Origin: a virus
Lineage: Duplodnaviria; Heunggongvirae; Uroviricota; Caudoviricetes
Direction: 5' to 3' (one strand)
DNA length: 10,488 bases
Virus record (IMG/VR): IMGVR_UViG_2534681663_000022
A program made the position numbers and the translations under genes. Below, one piece after another: positions 2,231 to 10,488 of this stretch. Under the pieces are notes generated by a model, which saw only the letters and a program-made list of their open reading frames with translations, ran no database searches and was not told the origin of the DNA. Within the stretch, counting starts at the first letter, position 1; each line of letters begins with the position of its first letter.

Positions 2231-3122
2231 TTGTCACCCCCATTGATATGCAGGGTGTCTTCTTCCTGTATTTTTCGTGAAGGATTTTTACTGCAGCGTT
2301 GTTCCAGGTGACCTGATGGTGAATGCGTTTATGGCTGGCACCCATCAGTGAGATTTTTACGCACGACGGCGAATACATGACGGAGTAAAAACTTTTAACG
2401 TAGGTTCCGGAATCCAGATACAGCTCGGTCATTCCGCCGCTGTTTTTCTGCGTCTGTTTCTGCCCTAACTGGACAGCACCGATCGTCATAAACAATTCAC
2501 CACAGCGACCGAGATTCGTGTACGTATTCACATCCTCGTTAATGCGCCCCATGAATGAGAACGGTCGATCAACCGAACAGATAAAGCTGTTCATTGCCTT
2601 GCGTTTCACCCACGAAGCATGGCCGCCATTGTCACCAAGAAAATCCCCGCCCTGCGACATAGCGATGGAAAGCGCGGGTATTGATTCGTAATACGCCAGC
2701 ATTTCAGAAAGGATCGCATCCAGTTTCCTTATCGGGAAATAGGCCTGGTCATAGTTGCGATCCACCCGAAACTGGAACTCGTGATAATCATCATCGAGCT
2801 GAATGAAGTATTTACACCCGACCAGTTTTGCCAGGTCGAAACAGGCATTACGGGCGTAAAAAATTGAGCGGCGATCACCAAAATTATCGGCTTCGTCAAA
2901 ACGACTGGCAATATCGGCTTTGGAAAATACCAGCACCTGTTCACCAAATTCAGCCATGTACTGATGCCGTGTCTTATCTTCATCATCAACAACGATAAAA
3001 ATTTTCCCGGTATAGCCAGCACGACGCAACGTCCGGTAAGTCAGAACTTTGTCCGGTCGCCCGTGAGTCAGAATAAAGGCGCAAAAATCATCACGCATAT
3101 TCCTCCTCCTCCTCCCCGCCAT
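2166..3122 (-). CDS. Putative GT-A fold (GT2-like) glycosyltransferase, soluble, with a DxD motif
   Basis: Motif order matches the GT2 N-terminal domain: FILTHGRPD (beta1), KIFIVVDDEDKT (beta2 with DD), KYFIQLDDDYHEF (DxD). No C-terminal transmembrane helices, so unlike GtrB. Alternative ATG at 3096-3098 sits directly after a GGAGGAGGAGGAGG run and overlaps the upstream stop. Confidence 0.5.
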   Translation of the reverse strand: MAGRRRRNMRDDFCAFILTHGRPDKVLTYRTLRRAGYTGKIFIVVDDEDKTRHQYMAEFGEQVLVFSKADIASRFDEADNFGDRRSIFYARNACFDLAKLVGCKYFIQLDDDYHEFQFRVDRNYDQAYFPIRKLDAILSEMLAYYESIPALSIAMSQGGDFLGDNGGHASWVKRKAMNSFICSVDRPFSFMGRINEDVNTYTNLGRCGELFMTIGAVQLGQKQTQKNSGGMTELYLDSGTYVKSFYSVMYSPSCVKISLMGASHKRIHHQVTWNNAAVKILHEKYRKKTPCISMGVTNDSVFESRVSGSVPDDCTTNR

Positions 3123-3885
3123 GCATGATCTCCACCATGCGCTGCGTCATTCGGACAAATCCATTTTCAATAGCCTGCTGATAATCAATGATCACCAGCG
3201 CCGACTCCTCGAAAAGGCACTGAATTTCAGCGGGGGCATGAGCGTAATAGTCCGCAATTCTGCTGAAATTAAACACTGTGTGACGTTCTGCCGCACACAG
3301 GAGGAATTTCTCAATATCAGGATCAAGGGACGCCGAACGTATCCGGCTGATCAGCTCCTGAGTTTTCGTATCGTCGTACAGTTCACTGATATCCGGTTTA
3401 CCGCCCGACGGCTCATAAACAGGCGTATCAATTTTCGTCGTATACGGCTCCTCCTCATTTCCTGTACCGGGCAAAACATCCGTCAACAGTTCATCAATTT
3501 CTGTCGGGATGAAGCCTGTCAGGGAGACATCAAAATCAGCATTGATTAGGTCCGACAGCTCCATCCGCAACAGATCTTCATCCCAGCCAGCATTCATCGG
3601 CAGGCGATTATCTGCCAGGCGGGACGCCTTTTTCTGCTCATCCGTCAGGCCAGACAGAACAATGACCGGAACAGAATCCATTTTGAGCATTTCAGCCGCC
3701 ATAACACGACCGTGACCCGCAATAATTTCGCCCTTTTCGTCAATCAGCACCGGATTAGTCCAGCCGAATTGCTTAATACTTTCTACCAGTTGTGCCACCT
3801 GCTCAGGGCTGTGCGTCCTGGCGTTGTGCGCATACGGTGACAATTCTTGTAATGGGCGATAGACTATCTTTAATTTCTCGCTCAT
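3091..3885 (-). CDS. ParB/Srx-like nuclease-domain protein with an acidic C-terminal tail; no methyltransferase motifs
   Basis: ATG at 3883-3885 is preceded by AAGG. The N-terminal domain carries ParB-type motifs (KIVYRPLQELSPYAHNARTH...IIAGHGR...). The C-terminal 160 aa lack DPPY/NPPY motifs and end GGEEEEEYA. Confidence 0.75.
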   Translation of the reverse strand: MSEKLKIVYRPLQELSPYAHNARTHSPEQVAQLVESIKQFGWTNPVLIDEKGEIIAGHGRVMAAEMLKMDSVPVIVLSGLTDEQKKASRLADNRLPMNAGWDEDLLRMELSDLINADFDVSLTGFIPTEIDELLTDVLPGTGNEEEPYTTKIDTPVYEPSGGKPDISELYDDTKTQELISRIRSASLDPDIEKFLLCAAERHTVFNFSRIADYYAHAPAEIQCLFEESALVIIDYQQAIENGFVRMTQRMVEIMHGGEEEEEYA

Positions 3886-4022: not shown

Positions 4023-5480
4023 TTAGGAGCGCCAAAAAAAACCTGAAAACAATATAATAACAGGATAAATTTCAAGGCGACCAAGAATCATAGCTATGCA
4101 CATTAAACATTTTGCAATGTCATTAAGCACTCCGAATGACGATGCAGTAGCCCCAAAACCTAATCCCATATTATTAATACATGCAGCCACTGTTGCAAAT
4201 GATGTAAGAAAATCATATCCCATACCATTTAACACCAGTATAAAAAACACCGTGAAGAGAGTATAAAGAAAAAAGAAACTCCATACAGACCTCATTACAC
4301 GATCTGTAACTATCTTCCCTCCTACATTTACACTCAACAACGCTCTGGGATGAGAAAGCTGATTTATCTCGTGTTTGCTTTGTTTGAAAAGTATAAGAAA
4401 TCGAAGTGACTTAATTCCACCACAAGTTGAACCTATACATCCCCCAAAGAAACTTGACAACAGCAAAAACACTATCGTGTGCGTGGGCCAACTTGCATAA
4501 TCCTGCGTAGCTAAACCATTATCAGTGAGCATGGAGCTGGCAAGAAAAAACGAATGAATAAAACTTCCATGCAAGTCATACATACCTATATGCCAGACCT
4601 GGAAAGAGGTAACAATGATCACCCCTAAGGCTATTAACAGAAAGAAACGAAGTTCAATATCTCTGATTAAAGGTTTTATCGTTTTCCTGCTAATAACAAT
4701 ATACCAAAGAGTGAAGTTGAAAGCCGATAGCAGGGAAAAAGAACCAGCCACCAGCTCAACCAAATAGTTATTAAAATATCCGATACTCTCGCTATGAGTT
4801 GAGAAACCACCAAGCGAAACTGTGGAAATCCCGTGACAAATAGCATCAAACAAAGGCATTCCTGCAAGTCTATAACAGACAATACAAGCAATACCTAATA
4901 AAGAATAAGTTATCCACAGTGTCCGTGACGTATCGGCCAGGCGGGGAGTGAGTTTGTCATCCTTAAATGGCCCCGGCATTTCTGACTGATAAAGCTTTGC
5001 ACCACCAATACCCAATAATGGCAATACAGCAACCGCCAGAACAATAACTCCTAAACCACCTATAAAATTTAACTGTGACCGATAGTACAAATATGCCCGA
5101 GGTAATGAACTAACATCATCAATTACAGTTGCTCCTGTTGTTGTTATTCCAGAAACCCCTTCAAACAGAGCATCAATGAACGTTAAATTAAGTTCTGAGT
5201 CAATCCATAAAGGGAATGCACTAATAACAGAAAACAAAATCCAAAACATTACAATTATAATAAACCCATCACGGGTACGTAATTGAATGCCAGATTTCTT
5301 AGTTGTATACCACGCTCCGCCACCAATGCAAAAAAATATAACGAAAGTTATAAAGAAAACGAACAGGCTTTTTTCTTTATAAAACAATGCTACAACCATT
5401 GGTGGCAACATTGAAAGACTATAGAGCCAAACCAGGAACCCACACATATGAGTAACAACTCTTACATGAGATGTATTCAT
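4023..5480 (-). CDS. trkG: Trk-system potassium uptake protein TrkG (TrkH/TrkG family membrane transporter), prophage cargo gene
   Basis: The 485-aa product from ATG 5478-5480 (MNTSHVRVVTHMCGFLVWLYSL...) matches the recalled E. coli Rac-prophage TrkG in length and sequence. It is multi-pass hydrophobic with repeated glycine-rich pore motifs. The gene and its flanks are visibly AT-rich compared with neighbouring phage genes. The ORF track starts at a TTG 18 nt upstream. Confidence 0.9.
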   Translation of the reverse strand: MNTSHVRVVTHMCGFLVWLYSLSMLPPMVVALFYKEKSLFVFFITFVIFFCIGGGAWYTTKKSGIQLRTRDGFIIIVMFWILFSVISAFPLWIDSELNLTFIDALFEGVSGITTTGATVIDDVSSLPRAYLYYRSQLNFIGGLGVIVLAVAVLPLLGIGGAKLYQSEMPGPFKDDKLTPRLADTSRTLWITYSLLGIACIVCYRLAGMPLFDAICHGISTVSLGGFSTHSESIGYFNNYLVELVAGSFSLLSAFNFTLWYIVISRKTIKPLIRDIELRFFLLIALGVIIVTSFQVWHIGMYDLHGSFIHSFFLASSMLTDNGLATQDYASWPTHTIVFLLLSSFFGGCIGSTCGGIKSLRFLILFKQSKHEINQLSHPRALLSVNVGGKIVTDRVMRSVWSFFFLYTLFTVFFILVLNGMGYDFLTSFATVAACINNMGLGFGATASSFGVLNDIAKCLMCIAMILGRLEIYPVIILFSGFFWRS

Positions 5481-5617
5481 ATCTAAATATTCTTTCAATT
5501 ATAACCACCTTGCTGCAATATTATGATTATACTGTATAAAATTTAACTCCTCTTAGATCTTACTTCACTGTTCCTTATGAAACAATCATCAAAATGAATC
5601 ATATTGTAGTTAAGATT

Positions 5618-6082
5618 TTACTTTAAACACTGCTCGGTTATGTATTGCTGAGCACCTTCAAGTTGGGCCTGCATCATTACCAGTCGTTCCCGGAGGGTGA
5701 AATAATCCCGTTCAGCGGTGTCTGCCAGTCGGGGGGAGGCTGCATTATCCACGCCGGAGGCGGTGGTGGCTTCACGCACTGACTGACAGACTGCTTTGAT
5801 GTGCAACCGACGACGACCAGCGGCAACATCATCACGCAGAACATCATTTTCAGCTTTCGCATCAGCTAACTCCTTCGTGTATTTTGCATCGAGCGCAGCA
5901 ACATCACGCTGACGCATCTGCATGTCAGTAATTGCCGCGTTCGCCAGCTTCAGTTCTCTGGCATTTTTGTCGCGCTGTTCTTTGTAGGCGATGGCGTTAT
6001 CACGGTAATGATTAACACCCCATGACAGGCAGACGACGATGCAGATAACCAGAGCGGAGATAATCGCGGTTACTCTGTTCAT
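5618..6082 (-). CDS. Rz i-spanin (inner-membrane spanin subunit)
   Basis: Near-identical to the recalled lambda Rz ([15 protein letters not shown]...[52 protein letters not shown]...). ATG at 6080-6082 overlaps the endolysin stop as ATGA. The ORF track extends it to a GTG at 6094. Confidence 0.9.
5677..5862 (-). CDS. Rz1 o-spanin (outer-membrane lipoprotein), embedded in Rz in a different frame
   Basis: Signal peptide with lipobox VVGC and a proline-rich mature region ([16 protein letters not shown]); fully nested within Rz, as in lambda Rz/Rz1. Confidence 0.85.
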
Positions 6083-6576
6083 TGCTGACCCCACAAACAG
6101 ATTTCACGCTCAATCTCACGACGAGTCATGAGACCTTTCCATTGCTTACCGCCAGCATATGTCCAGCGACGTAGCTGATCACATGCGCCTTTGATATCGC
6201 CCTGGTTTATTTTGCGAAGAAGCGTCGATGTTCTGAAATTGCCAGCACCCACGTTGTAAACGAATGAGTAAAGAGCGCCGCGCGTTGTTTCCGGTATATC
6301 GACTTTGATGTACGGGTTAATTTGTCTGGCGACCGTGGCAAGGTCTTTATTCAAGAGTGTTTTGCATTCTGCTTTGGTATACGTTTTACCGAGCATGATG
6401 TCTTTTCCTGTATGCCCGTGACATACAGTCCATACACCAACAATATCTTTGTATGGTATGTAGCTGACACCTTCCAGACCATCGTTACCACTTGGGCCAG
6501 TGATTAACACTGATGCTATAGCAATTGCTCCGCCACCAATAGCAGCAGCAACGACTTTTCGTAATGATGGAGGCAT
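6079..6576 (-). CDS. SAR endolysin (T4-lysozyme-like muramidase, phage 21 R / P1 Lyz type)
   Basis: Gly/Ala-rich signal-anchor-release N-terminal domain ([18 protein letters not shown]) and the catalytic triad E35, D44, T50 at the positions seen in R21. The start ATG overlaps the holin stop. Confidence 0.9.
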
Positions 6577-6791
6577 TATTCACCTCTCGCAGCCTTGCGC
6601 TTATCTTCTTTAATCTTGAAATAAAGGTTTGTCAGGTACGTCAGCAGGCCAAATACCAGACTACCCAGCACACCGATTGCAGCCCACTGTGACGGAGTTA
6701 CTCTATCGAGCAACTGTAAAAACCAGTAGCCAGCACTGCCTGCGGAGGTGCCGTAGGCAATGCCTGTTGAAATTTTGTCCATGGATTTCAT
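6576..6791 (-). CDS. Pinholin, phage 21 S-type, with dual-start motif (71-aa and 68-aa forms)
   Basis: ATG at 6789-6791 is preceded by GGAGGTGA. Product [71 protein letters not shown] has Met1/Met4 dual starts and two transmembrane segments. The 90-aa ORF in the track uses an upstream non-ATG start and is probably over-extended. Confidence 0.9.
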
Positions 6792-6892
6792 AGCCTCACC
6801 TCCGCACGGAACGGATGGCATAGTTATTATGTGTAGGCTTTCAGACACATCAATCAGAGCCTTAATTGATATATATGCTGGAGACGATGCAA

Positions 6893-6917
6893 TATAAAAA
6901 GCTCGCCGTAGCGAGCT
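6893..6917 (-). terminator. Intrinsic terminator downstream of the lipoprotein genes
   Basis: Minus-strand hairpin AGCTCGC-TACG-GCGAGCT followed by TTTTTAT. Confidence 0.6.
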
Positions 6918-7042: not shown

Positions 7043-7438
7043 CTAACCTCGCATGTCAAAGCCAGATTTCTGAAAATCTCTGTAGACTTCCGGATTGTTG
7101 AAGGCCGGAAATTTGGCTTTATGAGCTGCGGACTTTATCGCTTCGCAATAGGCTTTATCACCGTTACTGGTAGATATTTTTAACGCCGTGCCATCCTGAG
7201 AGAATTCCATATGCAACCTGCATTTTTTCCCTTTCCAGTTATGCGGCTCATCAAGTTTGGCATTAATTGCAGCTCTGATTCCCCGCGCTTGCGCCCCCCA
7301 TTCATCCTGATCATCCCAGCGTCCTGAACTGCAACTACCTGTAGCAGTAGTTTTGTGGCAATCTGAAGGGTGTAAAGGTGTGCATCCCGCAACAAAACCG
7401 ACCCAAAAAGTCAACATAACGATTTTCTTTAATCCCAC
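7043..7438 (-). CDS. Lipoprotein with a divergent TolA domain III-like C-terminal domain (paralog of the gene at 7589-8017)
   Basis: GTG at 7436-7438 is preceded by AGGAG at 6-nt spacing. Signal peptide MGLKKIVMLTFWVGFVAGC has lipobox VAGC, Thr at +2. The C-terminal segment IRAAINAKL...GKKCRLHMEFSQDGTALKI...YCEAIKSAAHKAKFPAFNNPEVYRDFQKSGFD aligns with the other lipoprotein and with the TolA C-terminus. Confidence 0.65.
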   Translation of the reverse strand: MGLKKIVMLTFWVGFVAGCTPLHPSDCHKTTATGSCSSGRWDDQDEWGAQARGIRAAINAKLDEPHNWKGKKCRLHMEFSQDGTALKISTSNGDKAYCEAIKSAAHKAKFPAFNNPEVYRDFQKSGFDMRG

Positions 7439-7588
7439 TTCTTGCTCCTCAATCCATTAAAATCTCAGCAATAGTAGTTGTTACGTCCGCCACTGGCTCA
7501 GAGCTGACTATCCGCTAAATTTAGCTCAGTGCCGTAGCTGTGTCAGAACAAACCTAAGCCGAAACCGTTTATTACAAAACAATAAATA

Positions 7589-8017
7589 TCAGGGTTTAAA
7601 ATCCAGCACCCCATTTTGAAATACTTTATATACTTCCGGCGAAGGGGGGGCAGGTATATCAGCATTCTTTATCGCATTCATCGCTTCACGACATAAATCG
7701 AGGTCTCCACTTTCTCTTTTAACCTCCAGTAGAAGGCCATTCGGGGCCATATGCATTCTCAGTGTACACTCTTTTCCTGAATACTTACTCGCATCCCCGA
7801 ACTGTTTTTCGATGGCGCTCTTGATTTGATGGGCATACAGACGGATATCCTCACTAACATCAGAAGTACGTTCAGATGAACTCACATACTGTGTCTCTAT
7901 TGCTTTATCGGAGTAATATGATGTACGGTCATGATAATTTGTCGATACAGCATCAGTGCACCCGATAATAATCCCACTAATAATCAACGTAAGAATTGAT
8001 GCGCTACGAAAACCCAT
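7589..8017 (-). CDS. Lipoprotein carrying a TolA domain III-like C-terminal domain
   Basis: ATG at 8015-8017 is preceded by GAGG. Signal peptide has lipobox IIGC, Thr at +2, then a Ser/Thr/Tyr-rich linker. The C-terminal 85 aa (IRLYAHQIKSAIEKQFGDASKYSGKECTLRMHMAPNGLLLEVKRESGDLDLCREAMNAIKNADIPAPPSPEVYKVFQNGVLDFKP) closely parallel the recalled E. coli TolA C-terminus (..YAGQIKSAIESKFYDASSYAGKTCTLRIKLAPDGMLLDIKPEGGDPALCQAALAAAKLAKIPKPPSQAVYEVFKNAPLDFKP). Confidence 0.75.
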   Translation of the reverse strand: MGFRSASILTLIISGIIIGCTDAVSTNYHDRTSYYSDKAIETQYVSSSERTSDVSEDIRLYAHQIKSAIEKQFGDASKYSGKECTLRMHMAPNGLLLEVKRESGDLDLCREAMNAIKNADIPAPPSPEVYKVFQNGVLDFKP

Positions 8018-8046
8018 TTTTCCTCACATATGTCATATAGTAAAGG

Positions 8047-8076
8047 ATTATATATACCGTTGTTTTGGACGCTCAA
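8047..8076 (-). promoter_or_regulatory. Putative sigma70 promoter for the lipoprotein genes
   Basis: Minus strand reads TTGAGC (-35, plus 8071-8076), an 18-bp spacer, then TATAAT (-10, plus 8047-8052), about 30 nt upstream of the 8017 start codon. Confidence 0.45.
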
Positions 8077-8604
8077 ACAGCGAATCAGATCAAATAAAAC
8101 GCACATTTGTTAACATTTACACAAAGTCTGCGTGGGATATTCTGAAAGAATATCCATAATGTGGAGAGAATCTATTGAAGTGCATGGTGCCGGGTGCCTC
8201 CCGGTGAACAAAATGTTCGTGATACCTGTCGGCGACAGAAAAGGTTAATGGTATCACCCCACCGCACAGGGGGATTCACCATGCAGGAGTTTTCTTAGCA
8301 AACTCACTGCGCGCCCGGCAACTCCCAACCACATAAAATGCGGAGTTTGTGGTATTTATGCATATAACTCGCAGGAATTATCTTAAAAAACTGATGTCGA
8401 TCCGGATTAAAAAGAAGCAGGTCATCATCAGATGACTGGAAAAAAGGAAAAAAAAATACTCATCATACAGTTTTGATTGCAGGGATGAGCCTGCTATGCA
8501 CAATATGCAGAATATAAGCAAGATAAAAATATGCAGGCATATTATTTCGGATTTTGTTATTAACACAACCTTTTTAATAATCATTTGGCATACAATAAAC
8601 CAGT

Positions 8605-8632
8605 CCAAAAAGAACCGCCTAAACAGGCGGTT
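8605..8632 (-). terminator. Intrinsic terminator within the Q-to-lipoprotein intergenic region
   Basis: Minus-strand hairpin AACCGCCT-GTTT-AGGCGGTT followed by CTTTTTGG. Confidence 0.6.
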
Positions 8633-8876
8633 GGTCAATACAAAGGATGCTTCGTCTTTATTATAGTAATCTGAGGCGTCGGGTGTCTTGTATCAGACAA
8701 CATATTGTCCCGCTAAACAGCGAATTACAAACCACCCTGCAATGATCTCTCATCTCATTTTATATGAGTTGACGACATCAGGATAACGCATCATCAGCCC
8801 CTGCCAAGAAATATCAAAACTCCCGCCAGCAATGTGTTATCACAATATTGTAAAAAAAACACAGCACCGAAACTAT

Positions 8877-8915: not shown

Positions 8916-8952
8916 GCCCAACTAGCAGCATTCTCCCCTGCTTTCCTGACGT

Positions 8953-8979
8953 AAAAAAACCGCATTAAGCGGTTTTTTT
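8953..8979. terminator. Bidirectional intrinsic terminator about 80 nt downstream of the Q-like gene (candidate tR'-type late terminator)
   Basis: AAAAAAACCGC-ATTAA-GCGGTTTTTTT: an 11-bp perfect stem with A-run and T-run flanks, so it is functional in either orientation. Confidence 0.7.
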
Positions 8980-9059: not shown

Positions 9060-9602
9060 TCAAGCCATTTTCTCAGCAAATGATTCACGCATGGGAATAT
9101 ATAGGGCATACTCAGCAACAGCTAACCAATTAGCAATCCGTTTTTCGCATGTGCTAAAACACCACTCTGGGTGTCCATCATTTAGCAATTCAGCCATTTT
9201 GCGCTTAGTCATCCCCCGCCCTTCATAGCGTTGCCGGAGAATGCAAATCAATCCTGGATGCTCTGCCAGCACCTCACTTATGACTCGATCAATACATAAC
9301 GCCTCTGCATCAGTACAATGCGCCAGCCAGCTCTTTTGCTTGCCGTTGATCATCTCTCGCAAAAACGCTTCCAGCTCAGCTTTCTCTATTCCCGCTTTTT
9401 TCATTCTACGCAGGGCTTCATTAATGGCTGTTTTCGTCAGTTTTTTGGATGCCAACAACTGATTGAACATATTCCCTGACCTGCCACCGCCAATATACGA
9501 CCAGCGCCCCCACATACGTAGTTTTCCCTGAATCCAGACACTTTCCAGCGTGGTGAGGCGAAGGTGTTCTCCGCTTTTTCCTGTATTCGTTGGGTAAATC
9601 AT
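9060..9602 (-). CDS. Putative late-gene antiterminator Q (Q82-like family)
   Basis: Last gene before the terminator and lysis cassette; start overlaps the upstream stop as ATGA; contains a WGRW motif reminiscent of the ERWGAW motif of 82-type Q proteins. The family call is from recall and position only. Confidence 0.6.
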   Translation of the reverse strand: MIYPTNTGKSGEHLRLTTLESVWIQGKLRMWGRWSYIGGGRSGNMFNQLLASKKLTKTAINEALRRMKKAGIEKAELEAFLREMINGKQKSWLAHCTDAEALCIDRVISEVLAEHPGLICILRQRYEGRGMTKRKMAELLNDGHPEWCFSTCEKRIANWLAVAEYALYIPMRESFAEKMA

Positions 9603-9889
9603 ATATGACCTTTCTTTCTCCAGATTTCTTGTGTGCGAAAAACCCCTTCAGCATGCATCAGGCGCAATTCTTCTTTGGTGTAATCGCTGGTTTTTACCCG
9701 CCCGTCGATTAGATCGTGGCATGAGCTACAGGCTATCGCCGCCTGCATATCGTGTGGTTTTGTCGCTGTTCCGCACGTCCCCGCCAGCCTGTAATGCGCC
9801 AGCACAGAGGTTTCGGGATTGTGATTGCAGTAGCCAGGGATTCTGATCTGGCACATCTGGCCTTTAGCCGCTTTACGTAAATTCACCAT
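9599..9889 (-). CDS. YbcO-like (DUF1364) Cys-rich putative nuclease of the lambdoid nin region
   Basis: MVNLRKAAKGQMCQIRIPGYCNHNPETSVLAHYRLAGTCGTATKP...IACSSCHDLIDGR closely parallels the recalled DLP12 YbcO (MADLRKAARGRECQVRIPGVCNGNPETSVLAHIRLTGLCGTGTKP..IACSACHDEIDRR). The start overlaps the upstream stop by one base. Confidence 0.75.
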   Translation of the reverse strand: MVNLRKAAKGQMCQIRIPGYCNHNPETSVLAHYRLAGTCGTATKPHDMQAAIACSSCHDLIDGRVKTSDYTKEELRLMHAEGVFRTQEIWRKKGHI

Positions 9890-10488
9890 TACGCAAACTC
9901 CAGTAGTTGTGCGGCCACATTTTCAACTTCCTCCTGAGAGGAGAATTTACGAAACAGAATCCAGTTCCACAGCACATTCAGTACAGATTTATAAACCTGC
10001 TGAAACTCGACTTCGTCCATATTCGCAAAAGCGATGGATTTTGCCCGACGCCCACGGCTACCGTCCGGATAAATATGCTCGGTGTAAAATCCGGCCTGAA
10101 TGGTTACCCACTCGCGGAAAGCCTCAAACGACTTTAGCAACGCCGTATCCCGGGTTCTACGAGTCGCAACGGTGTTAAGGTATTGCTCTGCGGCATCACT
10201 CAGGGCTGGCGTGTGTTCCCGACCAACTGATTCGCACAGGTAATCAACGAAACCAGACAGCAGTTCTCGTTCGCGAGGCGTGATCGCCCCACCGACCGGA
10301 GTCCAGTAATCGAATCCCAGTTGCAGGAGTTTGAAAAAACGCTTGTGGAATGCGTAGTTACGCACACGCTTAAAGTCTGCGTGTATCCACTCACCTATTT
10401 TGATTTGATGCAGAAAATCGCAACTCTCCGGCGTCGCCGGGAGAAGTAAACCAGAAGAAGTTTGTTTGACCAGTTGTATATGCGCCAT
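9889..10488 (-). CDS. Conserved lambdoid nin-region hypothetical protein (199 aa; possibly DUF1367-type)
   Basis: Complete ORF with ATG at 10486-10488 at the window edge, coupled to the YbcO-like gene. The family name is a tentative recollection, not verified. Confidence 0.5.
   Translation of the reverse strand: MAHIQLVKQTSSGLLLPATPESCDFLHQIKIGEWIHADFKRVRNYAFHKRFFKLLQLGFDYWTPVGGAITPRERELLSGFVDYLCESVGREHTPALSDAAEQYLNTVATRRTRDTALLKSFEAFREWVTIQAGFYTEHIYPDGSRGRRAKSIAFANMDEVEFQQVYKSVLNVLWNWILFRKFSSQEEVENVAAQLLEFA

Follow-up and report, generated by a model that had tools for sequence, protein, structure and literature searches.

Predicted lipoproteins carrying TolA domain III on an Escherichia coli prophage: candidate decoys for Tol-dependent bacteriocins and filamentous phages

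Phages and plasmids carry small outer membrane lipoproteins as cargo that protects the carrier. Cor (phi80/N15/HK022), Llp (T5), TraT (F) and Bor/Iss (lambda/ColV) are of this kind, and Bor/Iss are common to lambdoid phages and plasmids. Boeke, Model and Zinder reportedly found in 1982 that periplasmic N-domains of g3p occupy TolA, which gave resistance to Ff phages and tolerance to colicins. Export of TolA domain III (TolAIII) to the periplasm is said to have made E. coli tolerant to group A colicins in the 1993 work of Levengood-Freyermuth et al. Here we describe two genes in a 10,488-nt stretch of DNA from the IMG/VR virus record IMGVR_UViG_2534681663_000022 (hereafter the window), each of which joins a lipoprotein signal peptide to a TolAIII domain. 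Gene A is the open reading frame (ORF) at 7589-8017 and encodes protein A (142 aa); gene B is the ORF at 7043-7438 and encodes protein B (131 aa). Both are on the minus strand, as are all the genes of interest, and they belong to a lambdoid, Rac-like E. coli prophage that carries trkG. We give an even chance to the reading that A and B are motor-less TolAIII decoys, tethered to the outer membrane and directed against Tol-dependent bacteriocins and filamentous phages. Its basis is what was computed here: the lipoprotein signal sequences and the fold of TolAIII, a retained edge strand for binding, selection that is purifying, a cargo-like layout and the spread on mobile elements.

Gene A starts with the ATG at 8017, which is preceded by the Shine-Dalgarno sequence GAGG. 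The N-terminus of protein A, MGFRSASILTLIISGIIIGC followed by TDAV, has a positive n-region, a hydrophobic core and a lipobox with Thr at +2. Read directly from the sequence, the signal peptide and lipobox (IIGC; Cys20, Thr21) take up residues 1-20 (7958-8017), and the lipobox Cys was invariant in the alignment of family A. Residues 21-54 (7856-7957) make up a tether predicted to be disordered, with a predicted local distance difference test (pLDDT) score below 50 for residues 1-50 in the AlphaFold2 (AF2) model. The TolAIII domain follows at residues 55-142 (7592-7855), was assigned by sequence and fold match, and ends in the edge strand LDFKP. Pfam PF06519 matched residues 49-140 (E = 2.4e-23, 82.6 bits against a cut-off of 25), and TonB_2 was the only other Pfam domain reported. 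A phmmer search of the PDB sequences found the E. coli TolAIII chains 1S62, 3QDP, 2X9A and 1TOL (5e-28), and a gapless alignment to residues 334-421 of E. coli TolA had 52 identical positions out of 88 (~60%). The domain had a pLDDT above 90, and Foldseek superposed it on 2x9a_B with a root-mean-square deviation (rmsd) of 0.7 Å and a template modelling (TM) score of 0.95. Among the NCBIfam models of full-length TolA, protein A stayed below the cut-off of NF007065 (107.8 bits, cut-off 213) and exceeded that of TIGR02794 (75.6 bits, cut-off 59.45) with the C-terminal part alone.

Gene B starts with a GTG at 7438, behind the Shine-Dalgarno sequence GAGGAG. Its product begins with MGLKKIVMLTFWVGFVAGC followed by TPLH and again shows a positive n-region, a hydrophobic core and a lipobox with Thr at +2 (residues 1-19, 7382-7438; VAGC, Cys19, Thr20). 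Among the homologues Cys19 was invariant and the KKIV n-region was conserved, and residue +2 was A, G, S or T in those inspected. On the strength of the conserved n-region and Cys19, we favoured the GTG over the shorter ATG start annotated by the Prokaryotic Genome Annotation Pipeline (PGAP). The signal peptide is followed by a conserved linker, residues 20-43 (7310-7381; TPLHPSDCHKTTATGSCSSGRWDD), so that the mature N-terminus reads lipid-Cys-x7-C-x8-C and then RWDDQDEW, nearly invariant across genera in the homologue alignment. Nothing in TolA corresponds to this linker. Distant short relatives that are 40-50% identical had a comparable loop with two Cys, in which 5-8 residues precede the first Cys and 7-9 form the loop. 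The hairpin was modelled by AF2 at low confidence; its conservation suggests a disulfide-stapled hairpin with a function of its own. The TolAIII domain occupies residues 44-131 (7046-7309) and ends in the edge strand FDMRG. Pfam PF06519 matched residues 44-125 (E = 1.3e-14, 54.6 bits, same cut-off of 25), and besides TolA there was one sub-threshold match to But2. The same four PDB chains were found by phmmer (5e-9), and 27 of 88 positions (~31%) were identical to TolA 334-421. The pLDDT of the domain was again above 90, and Foldseek gave an rmsd of 1.1 Å and a TM score of 0.92 against 3qdp. Both full-length TolA models were missed (NF007065, 53.7 bits, below 213; TIGR02794, 47.2 bits, below 59.45). 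A sequence-only reading of the window had proposed two outer-membrane-type lipoproteins with these lipoboxes and Thr at +2, each ending in a domain like TolAIII; the ORFs and signal peptides were read as it described, and the profile and structure comparisons bear the domain out.

Compared with full-length TolA, both proteins are reduced to one end. They matched only the last ~95 positions of the full-length models (362 and 387 positions). The AF2 models and Foldseek gave both domains the TolAIII fold, a three-stranded sheet packed against helices. A Cys pair (C84/C109 in protein A, C73/C98 in protein B) was invariant in the family alignments and aligns with C363 and C388 of TolA. The N-terminal inner membrane anchor of TolA (domain I) is absent from both and a cleavable-type lipoprotein signal peptide stands in its place; the helical domain II, which spans the periplasm, is absent as well, and the linkers of 34 (A) and 24 (B) residues are disordered or modelled with low confidence. 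Since the anchor and domain II have been replaced, A and B cannot couple to TolQR. The two genes also lie outside any ybgC-tolQRA-tolB-pal-cpoB operon, between the phage Q-like gene and the holin gene.

The surfaces by which TolA is bound were compared next to the known contacts. The g3p-N1 domain, colicin N and the N-terminus of TolB each add a strand to β3 of TolA (residues 415-421) through backbone hydrogen bonds with D418 and K420, and this strand addition is abolished by D418P and K420P (PMC4339652). The g3p of If1 has been crystallised with TolAIII (PDB 2X9A). In protein A, β3 is GVLDFKP, identical to TolA at 5 of 7 positions; the last five residues, LDFKP, are all identical, and both D and K are kept. 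In protein B it is SGFDMRG, where D is kept, K is changed to R and the residues are β-forming, so that this edge strand appears compatible with strand addition. Colicin A uses the opposite edge of TolA (L375-P380, with cation-π contacts to K368, K379 and K396; PMC3365938). Protein A mostly keeps this site (LLEVKR, with K379 and K396 retained) and protein B has lost it, which fits differing ligand ranges of the two proteins, as judged from the residues.

Proteins A and B were only 29% identical to each other, and protein A was nearer to host TolA than to protein B. The strong divergence between the copies noted in the sequence-only reading is therefore real. A recent tandem duplication was ruled out on these two grounds, and A and B are separate lineages by sequence comparison. 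Both are under purifying selection. The ratio of nonsynonymous to synonymous substitution rates (dN/dS) between gene A and a 66%-identical variant was 0.24 in the domain and 0.585 in the tether, which evolves fast. In the gene B family selection was strongly purifying (dN/dS 0.03-0.17 at dS of at least 0.5).

The decoy reading can be set out as follows. A and B would be exported and, as predicted, lipidated on the lipobox Cys. As Asp at +2 is absent from both, their predicted destination is the outer membrane, at its inner leaflet. The flexible tether would display a folded TolAIII that is unconnected to the TolQR motor. Two kinds of invader would be concerned, namely Tol-dependent (group A) colicins with their bacteriocin relatives, through the translocation domain, and filamentous phages specific for pili, through g3p-N1. 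Once past the outer membrane and in need of TolAIII, they would encounter the decoy before the energised TolA and attach to it by β-strand addition. The resulting complex could not be pulled and would be unproductive, and the lysogen, plasmid host or chromosomal carrier would become tolerant. We infer from the computed features the lipidation and sorting, the ligand binding, the protection and the expression in lysogens. In this prophage A and B are probably stacked to cover different ligands. The published affinities of TolAIII, ~1 µM for colicin N and g3p-N1 and ~40 µM for TolB (PMC4339652), favour a decoy, since moderate levels of it could trap invaders without titrating TolB.

The distribution of the two families was wide and uneven. 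An A-B pair (at least 80% query coverage) was found in 771 of 5,426 complete E. coli genomes. Family A comprised 46 clusters, in E. coli and Shigella only; gene A was 99-100% identical across hundreds of sequences. Family B comprised 370 clusters at 90% identity, with members at 78-89% identity in Citrobacter, Enterobacter, Serratia, Klebsiella, Raoultella and others. About 600 plasmids had a B homologue at 87% nucleotide identity, and a catalogue of 72,556 plasmids contained ~1,300 with B-like or more distant TolAIII genes, among them pO157 and epidemic resistance plasmids of types IncK, IncB/O and IncZ. On IncK2/Z, IncB/O and IncI-gamma/K plasmids the B homologue lies 68 bp downstream of the relaxase gene and opposite trbABC; on pO157 it is flanked by toxB or an IS3 element on one side and by the hok-psiAB region on the other. 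Over 30 species, chromosomal B homologues were lone genes with at least 22 distinct settings, and the neighbours were unrelated housekeeping or accessory genes. One Serratia homologue adjoins a GmrSD_N (DUF262-type) and HEPN pair, which is taken as defence-like on its domain content.

A variants occur alone, and B occurs alone on plasmids and chromosomes, which rules out an obligate two-gene system. The idea of a tandem pair of paralogues acting as one system had to be given up, and so had that of a prophage-specific family. Purifying selection on B over 22 unrelated neighbourhoods points instead to a single-gene function that would be self-sufficient. The pili of I-complex-type plasmids are the receptors of If1-type phages, and the decoy reading makes ecological sense for pilus-encoding plasmids as well as for lysogens.

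More distant lipoprotein-TolAIII relatives were collected by a profile-free exhaustive search that gave 130 cluster representatives. Seventy-two of them were 100-170 aa long, 49 of these 72 had a lipobox-like motif, and the database names were generic only. A tblastn search of the plasmids with B added another ~690 records that carry distant TolAIII genes, mainly from Klebsiella. Among these, ColRNAI plasmids of the cloacin type (10-12 kb) had an operon of a 123-aa lipoprotein-TolAIII (lipobox LTAC, C-terminal end NAPLDFRP) and a 121-aa Sec-exported TonB_C protein, for example on the K. pneumoniae plasmid NZ_CP031718.1 (L132, 1512-2245; also L133). The operon is divergent from a cloacin-type bacteriocin gene, an immunity gene and a lysis gene, and the neighbouring bacteriocin has a Cloacin-family translocation domain. 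Import of cloacin DF13 is Tol-dependent. The operon looks like a pair of translocon mimics. Of all the contextual hints that the architecture concerns bacteriocin or phage import, this imitation of the receptor domains of both import machines, on a plasmid that encodes a bacteriocin, is the strongest. Papers on Klebsiella plasmids mention the 'tolA' gene only as present (PMC6807383, PMC10269471). A 144-aa lipoprotein-TolAIII was also seen among insertion sequence (IS) elements on the Klebsiella IncFII plasmid NZ_CP050361.1 (L134, 5217-6246), and the gene directly upstream of it is thioredoxin-like (Thioredoxin_2, with weak DsbA and TraF matches).

Three observations make the decoy reading more plausible, namely the retained edge strand, the B homologues in the transfer region of I-complex pilus plasmids and the TonB-C-paired relatives on bacteriocin plasmids. 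With somewhat less confidence we would go further and suggest that translocon mimics may be widespread on the mobile elements of Enterobacterales, as motor-less periplasmic copies of the TolA domain, lipid-anchored, and on some plasmids of the TonB C-terminal domain, secreted. They would give a generic, single-gene immunity against Tol- and Ton-dependent bacteriocins and pilus-specific filamentous phages. The A and B genes of prophages, the relaxase-linked gene and the cloacin-plasmid operon of TolAIII and TonB-C might then be three forms of one undescribed strategy.

The layout around the two genes resembles that of cargo. The gene order is DUF1367, YbcO-type nuclease, Q-like, gene A, gene B, holin, lysozyme, Rz, Rz1 and trkG, which agrees with the position between Q and the lysis genes given in the sequence-only reading. 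The window was scanned for promoters and terminators, and the totals were compared with those in shuffled sequence. A sigma-70 promoter-like site (TTGAGC-18-TATAAT, 8047-8076, minus strand) matches the consensus at 10 of 12 positions and lies ~30 nt upstream of the start codon of gene A. An intrinsic terminator-like hairpin (6917-6900) with a T run (together 6892-6917, minus strand) lies between gene B and the holin gene and has a stem of 7 bp, 5 of them GC pairs, ahead of TTTTTAT. The intergenic spacer between A and B (7439-7588, minus strand) contains the GAGGAG of gene B and a weak promoter-like site (7546-7518), and is conserved with the rest of the block. The window had 11 promoter-like sites, where the shuffles had 7.5±2.8; for terminator-like sites the figures were 4 and 2.4±1.4. 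As these totals are little above the shuffles, the matches are suggestive only; the promoter and terminator that had been proposed for the pair were both found by the scan, and they carry no more weight than that.

An STnc100-family RNA element (8128-8314, minus strand) lies just upstream of the gene A promoter. It was a full-length match to Rfam RF02076 (86.6 bits against a gathering score of 47), and of the 80 related IMG/VR loci that we used for a mosaic analysis, 72 carried it. It may be the leader of a late transcript or a remnant of a tRNA region; in phage mEp460_ev081 an STnc100 element was seen between two tRNA genes and gene A, and no tRNA was found in a search across the window. Among the 80 loci the block from STnc100 through the promoter, A and B to the holin gene was nearly invariant. 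The A block was kept, at 100% identity, in 79 of them, and about half had other genes on the Q side and in place of endolysin and Rz. Phage mEp460_ev081 has the block with a different Q and a different endolysin. The IMG/VR relatives of the B gene of the window were 99%-identical copies only. The G+C content of the cassette was 0.37-0.46 versus 0.47-0.55 in the flanks. We counted this cargo (moron) layout, i.e. the promoter-like site, the terminator, the lower G+C content and the mosaic block, for the decoy reading.

Transcription from a late promoter was also considered. The Q-like late antiterminator gene (DUF1133; 9060-9602, minus strand) matched Pfam DUF1133 at 7e-107 and reached Phage_antitermQ at threshold level only (26.4 bits, cut-off 26). 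The ~1 kb between it and gene A had no convincing protein gene. In this interval the scan found a promoter-like site (8689-8660) and, within ~30 nt, a strong terminator (8632-8613), on the minus strand (8613-8689 together), which looks like a pR'/tR' pair with a very short transcript. Given the position of this candidate pR' after the Q-like gene, the late message antiterminated by Q would include A and B as well. The 66%-identical A variant occurs alone in a late region like that of Stx phages (L123; L125, 3636-6429), at the place where those phages have stx. The order there is Q, a TfpB-family gene, an AraC-like regulator, two tRNAs, the A variant, terminators and nanS-p.

Other features of the window can be listed briefly. 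Upstream of the Q-like gene are the genes for DUF1367 (9889-10488) and the YbcO-type nuclease (9599-9889), and the lysis cassette begins with a P21-type holin gene (6576-6848; Pfam PF04971; in 80 of 80 related IMG/VR loci) followed by lysozyme (6079-6576), Rz and Rz1, all on the minus strand. A hairpin at ~8950-8978 with T runs on both sides directly follows the stop codon of the Q-like gene; it was not scored by the scan. The ORF at 8378-8638 (minus strand, 86 aa) is AT-rich, has no Pfam match and overlaps the candidate tR'; it is unlikely to be a gene. As in Rac, the lysis cassette is separated from the packaging genes by trkG (4023-5498) and a ParB/Srx-like gene (3091-3885), which is intact here and a pseudogene (ynaK) in strain ECCHD184. 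An IS3-family element (1-1214; two ORFs; Rfam isrC at 1060-1182) abuts the ORF of the terminase small subunit (1235-1975). This ORF has 246 aa versus 364 aa in the prophage of strain ECCHD184, which is otherwise identical to this one, and since it is shortened beside the IS3 element, this prophage copy is probably packaging-defective.

Several points weigh against the decoy reading. Protein B shares only one of seven β3 residues with TolA and has E, S and H in place of the three lysines that contact colicin A, so it may bind something besides the known TolA ligands. Plasmid pO157 was typed as non-mobilizable, and therefore protection of a pilus-bearing host cannot explain its copy. Many B homologues are single chromosomal genes among housekeeping genes, which a physiological role in the envelope fits too. 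The promoter and terminator are consensus matches that were nearly as frequent in shuffled sequence, expression in the lysogen is only predicted, and the A variant of the other phage lies inside a late transcript without a good promoter of its own. PADLOC gave no match to A or B at E ≤ 1, and in the literature searched we found no functional study of A, B or their relatives; the papers found only report that plasmids or prophage islands have a 'tolA' gene and assign it no function (PMC6854850, PMC6807383, PMC10269471). An expression lead, EDL933_2012 'tail fiber/TolA', which was 32-fold up with ciprofloxacin (PMC11125564), was dropped. The identity of that gene is doubtful because RAST-type annotation calls the neighbouring holin a 'tail fiber protein', and the one EDL933 prophage region inspected had no TolA-like gene.

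The main rival explanation, which we consider fairly unlikely, is that A and B antagonise the Tol-Pal system. A TolAIII tethered to the outer membrane would bind the TolB N-terminus or another partner, uncouple Pal mobilisation from TolQRA and loosen the outer membrane. If it is made in bulk from the Q-dependent late transcript, just before the holin, endolysin and spanin, phage release or vesiculation would be helped, and on cloacin plasmids the release of bacteriocin. Late transcription is suggested by the position of the genes between the candidate pR'/tR' and the holin gene, and the A variant in the stx slot without a convincing promoter of its own points the same way; the promoter-like site of gene A and the terminator that separates the cassette from the holin gene do not. 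Protein A retains the exact TolB-binding strand (PMC4339652), although the TolA-TolB affinity of ~40 µM is weak and titration would demand high expression. It is also known that overproduced periplasmic TolAIII, which is used in biotechnology, lets periplasmic proteins escape to the medium (PMC6195910). However, Rz and Rz1 are already there to disrupt the outer membrane, and a leaky membrane would be costly where B homologues sit, in conjugative transfer regions and as lone chromosomal genes. The Klebsiella relative adjoins a bacteriocin and lysis-gene cluster as this explanation would have it, but the cloacin-plasmid pair is transcribed divergently from the bacteriocin operon.

A physiological envelope protein seems to us an unlikely alternative still. 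Under this explanation the TolAIII/TonB-C fold would serve as a β-augmentation adaptor at the outer membrane whose partner is not yet known, for example by docking to an outer membrane protein or to the conjugation machinery, or by serum resistance or envelope stabilisation like Bor, Iss and TraT. The genes would then ride mobile elements as fitness or virulence factors and not as defence. The short-TolAIII family is large and diverse enough for this (the 72 short representatives, 49 lipobox-like), and strong constraint acts also on the N-terminal Cys loop of B, without TolA counterpart. B has lost the colicin A contact residues, and on I-complex plasmids the gene follows nikA/nikB as though it were part of a relaxosome operon. 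Chromosomal copies do stand among housekeeping genes, but none of the 22 different neighbourhoods in 30 species provided a conserved neighbour as a candidate partner. A patchy distribution with carriage by phages and plasmids is what one would sooner expect of conflict genes, and the secreted TonB C-terminal partner on a bacteriocin plasmid is hard to square with housekeeping.

That the genes are non-functional debris, fragments of a captured tolA as the RefSeq label of gene A as a pseudogene 'missing N-terminus' implies, is scarcely credible, since both ORFs are intact with Shine-Dalgarno sequences and full lipoprotein signal peptides replacing the TolA membrane anchor, gene A is nearly identical in hundreds of sequences and kept in 79 of 80 related loci, the dN/dS values of both domains contradict it, the folds are confidently predicted by AF2, and the pseudogene call stems from the TIGR02794 score of A.

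In RefSeq, PGAP annotates only 261 nt of gene A (L001, 9740-10000) as this 'tolA' pseudogene, although the ORF is intact. Because the C-terminal domain alone exceeds the TIGR02794 cut-off, the label is an artefact, and the error probably affects hundreds of genomes. Gene B is named 'cell envelope integrity TolA C-terminal domain-containing protein' by PGAP, and PHROGs places both A and B in phrog_5772, of unknown function. The TolA domain assignment is thus already known from public annotation; the architecture, the spread on mobile elements and the likely function were not described in the literature searched. The family is common and mis-annotated, and RefSeq hides one member of the pair as a pseudogene. 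If A and B are decoys, phages and plasmids would have a further route of host protection, in which a periplasmic co-receptor is imitated rather than a surface receptor masked. This could explain strain differences in sensitivity to colicins, klebicins and filamentous phages, and would be relevant to bacteriocin and phage therapeutics and to phage display in wild strains. If they are Tol-Pal antagonists, they would be natural tools to control outer membrane integrity and vesiculation.

Among the known systems, we rate A and B with the accessory outer membrane lipoproteins that protect their carrier, here presumably by receptor mimicry. Cor, Llp, TraT and Bor/Iss showed no sequence or fold relation to A and B, in which Pfam found only TolA and TonB_2; they act on an outer membrane receptor (FhuA, OmpA) or on serum killing and do not imitate a periplasmic co-receptor. 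The immunity mediated by g3p would rest on the same interaction of TolAIII with g3p and colicins as the decoy model, with the reverse strategy, in which the ligand blocks the receptor. The nearest relatives by architecture are those on the Klebsiella ColRNAI and IncFII plasmids (lipobox LTAC, a short linker and a TolAIII ending in LDFRP or LDFRL). Their identity is 39% and 33% with A, and 27% and 35% with B; they belong to another subfamily on another replicon, and one of them is partnered with a TonB C-terminal domain. E. coli TolAIII itself (PF06519; 1TOL, 1S62, 3QDP, 2X9A) is homologous to A and B, with the same fold, Cys pair and C-terminal edge strand; in A and B a signal peptide and a tether of 24-34 residues replace the membrane anchor and helical domain II of TolA. 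Engineered periplasmic TolAIII (Levengood-Freyermuth 1993; Wan & Baneyx 1998) resembles A and B in being free of the motor in the periplasm, and it is reported to release periplasmic proteins to the medium (PMC6195910). Unlike it, A and B are natural and diverged, are predicted to be lipid-anchored, and are carried on mobile elements.

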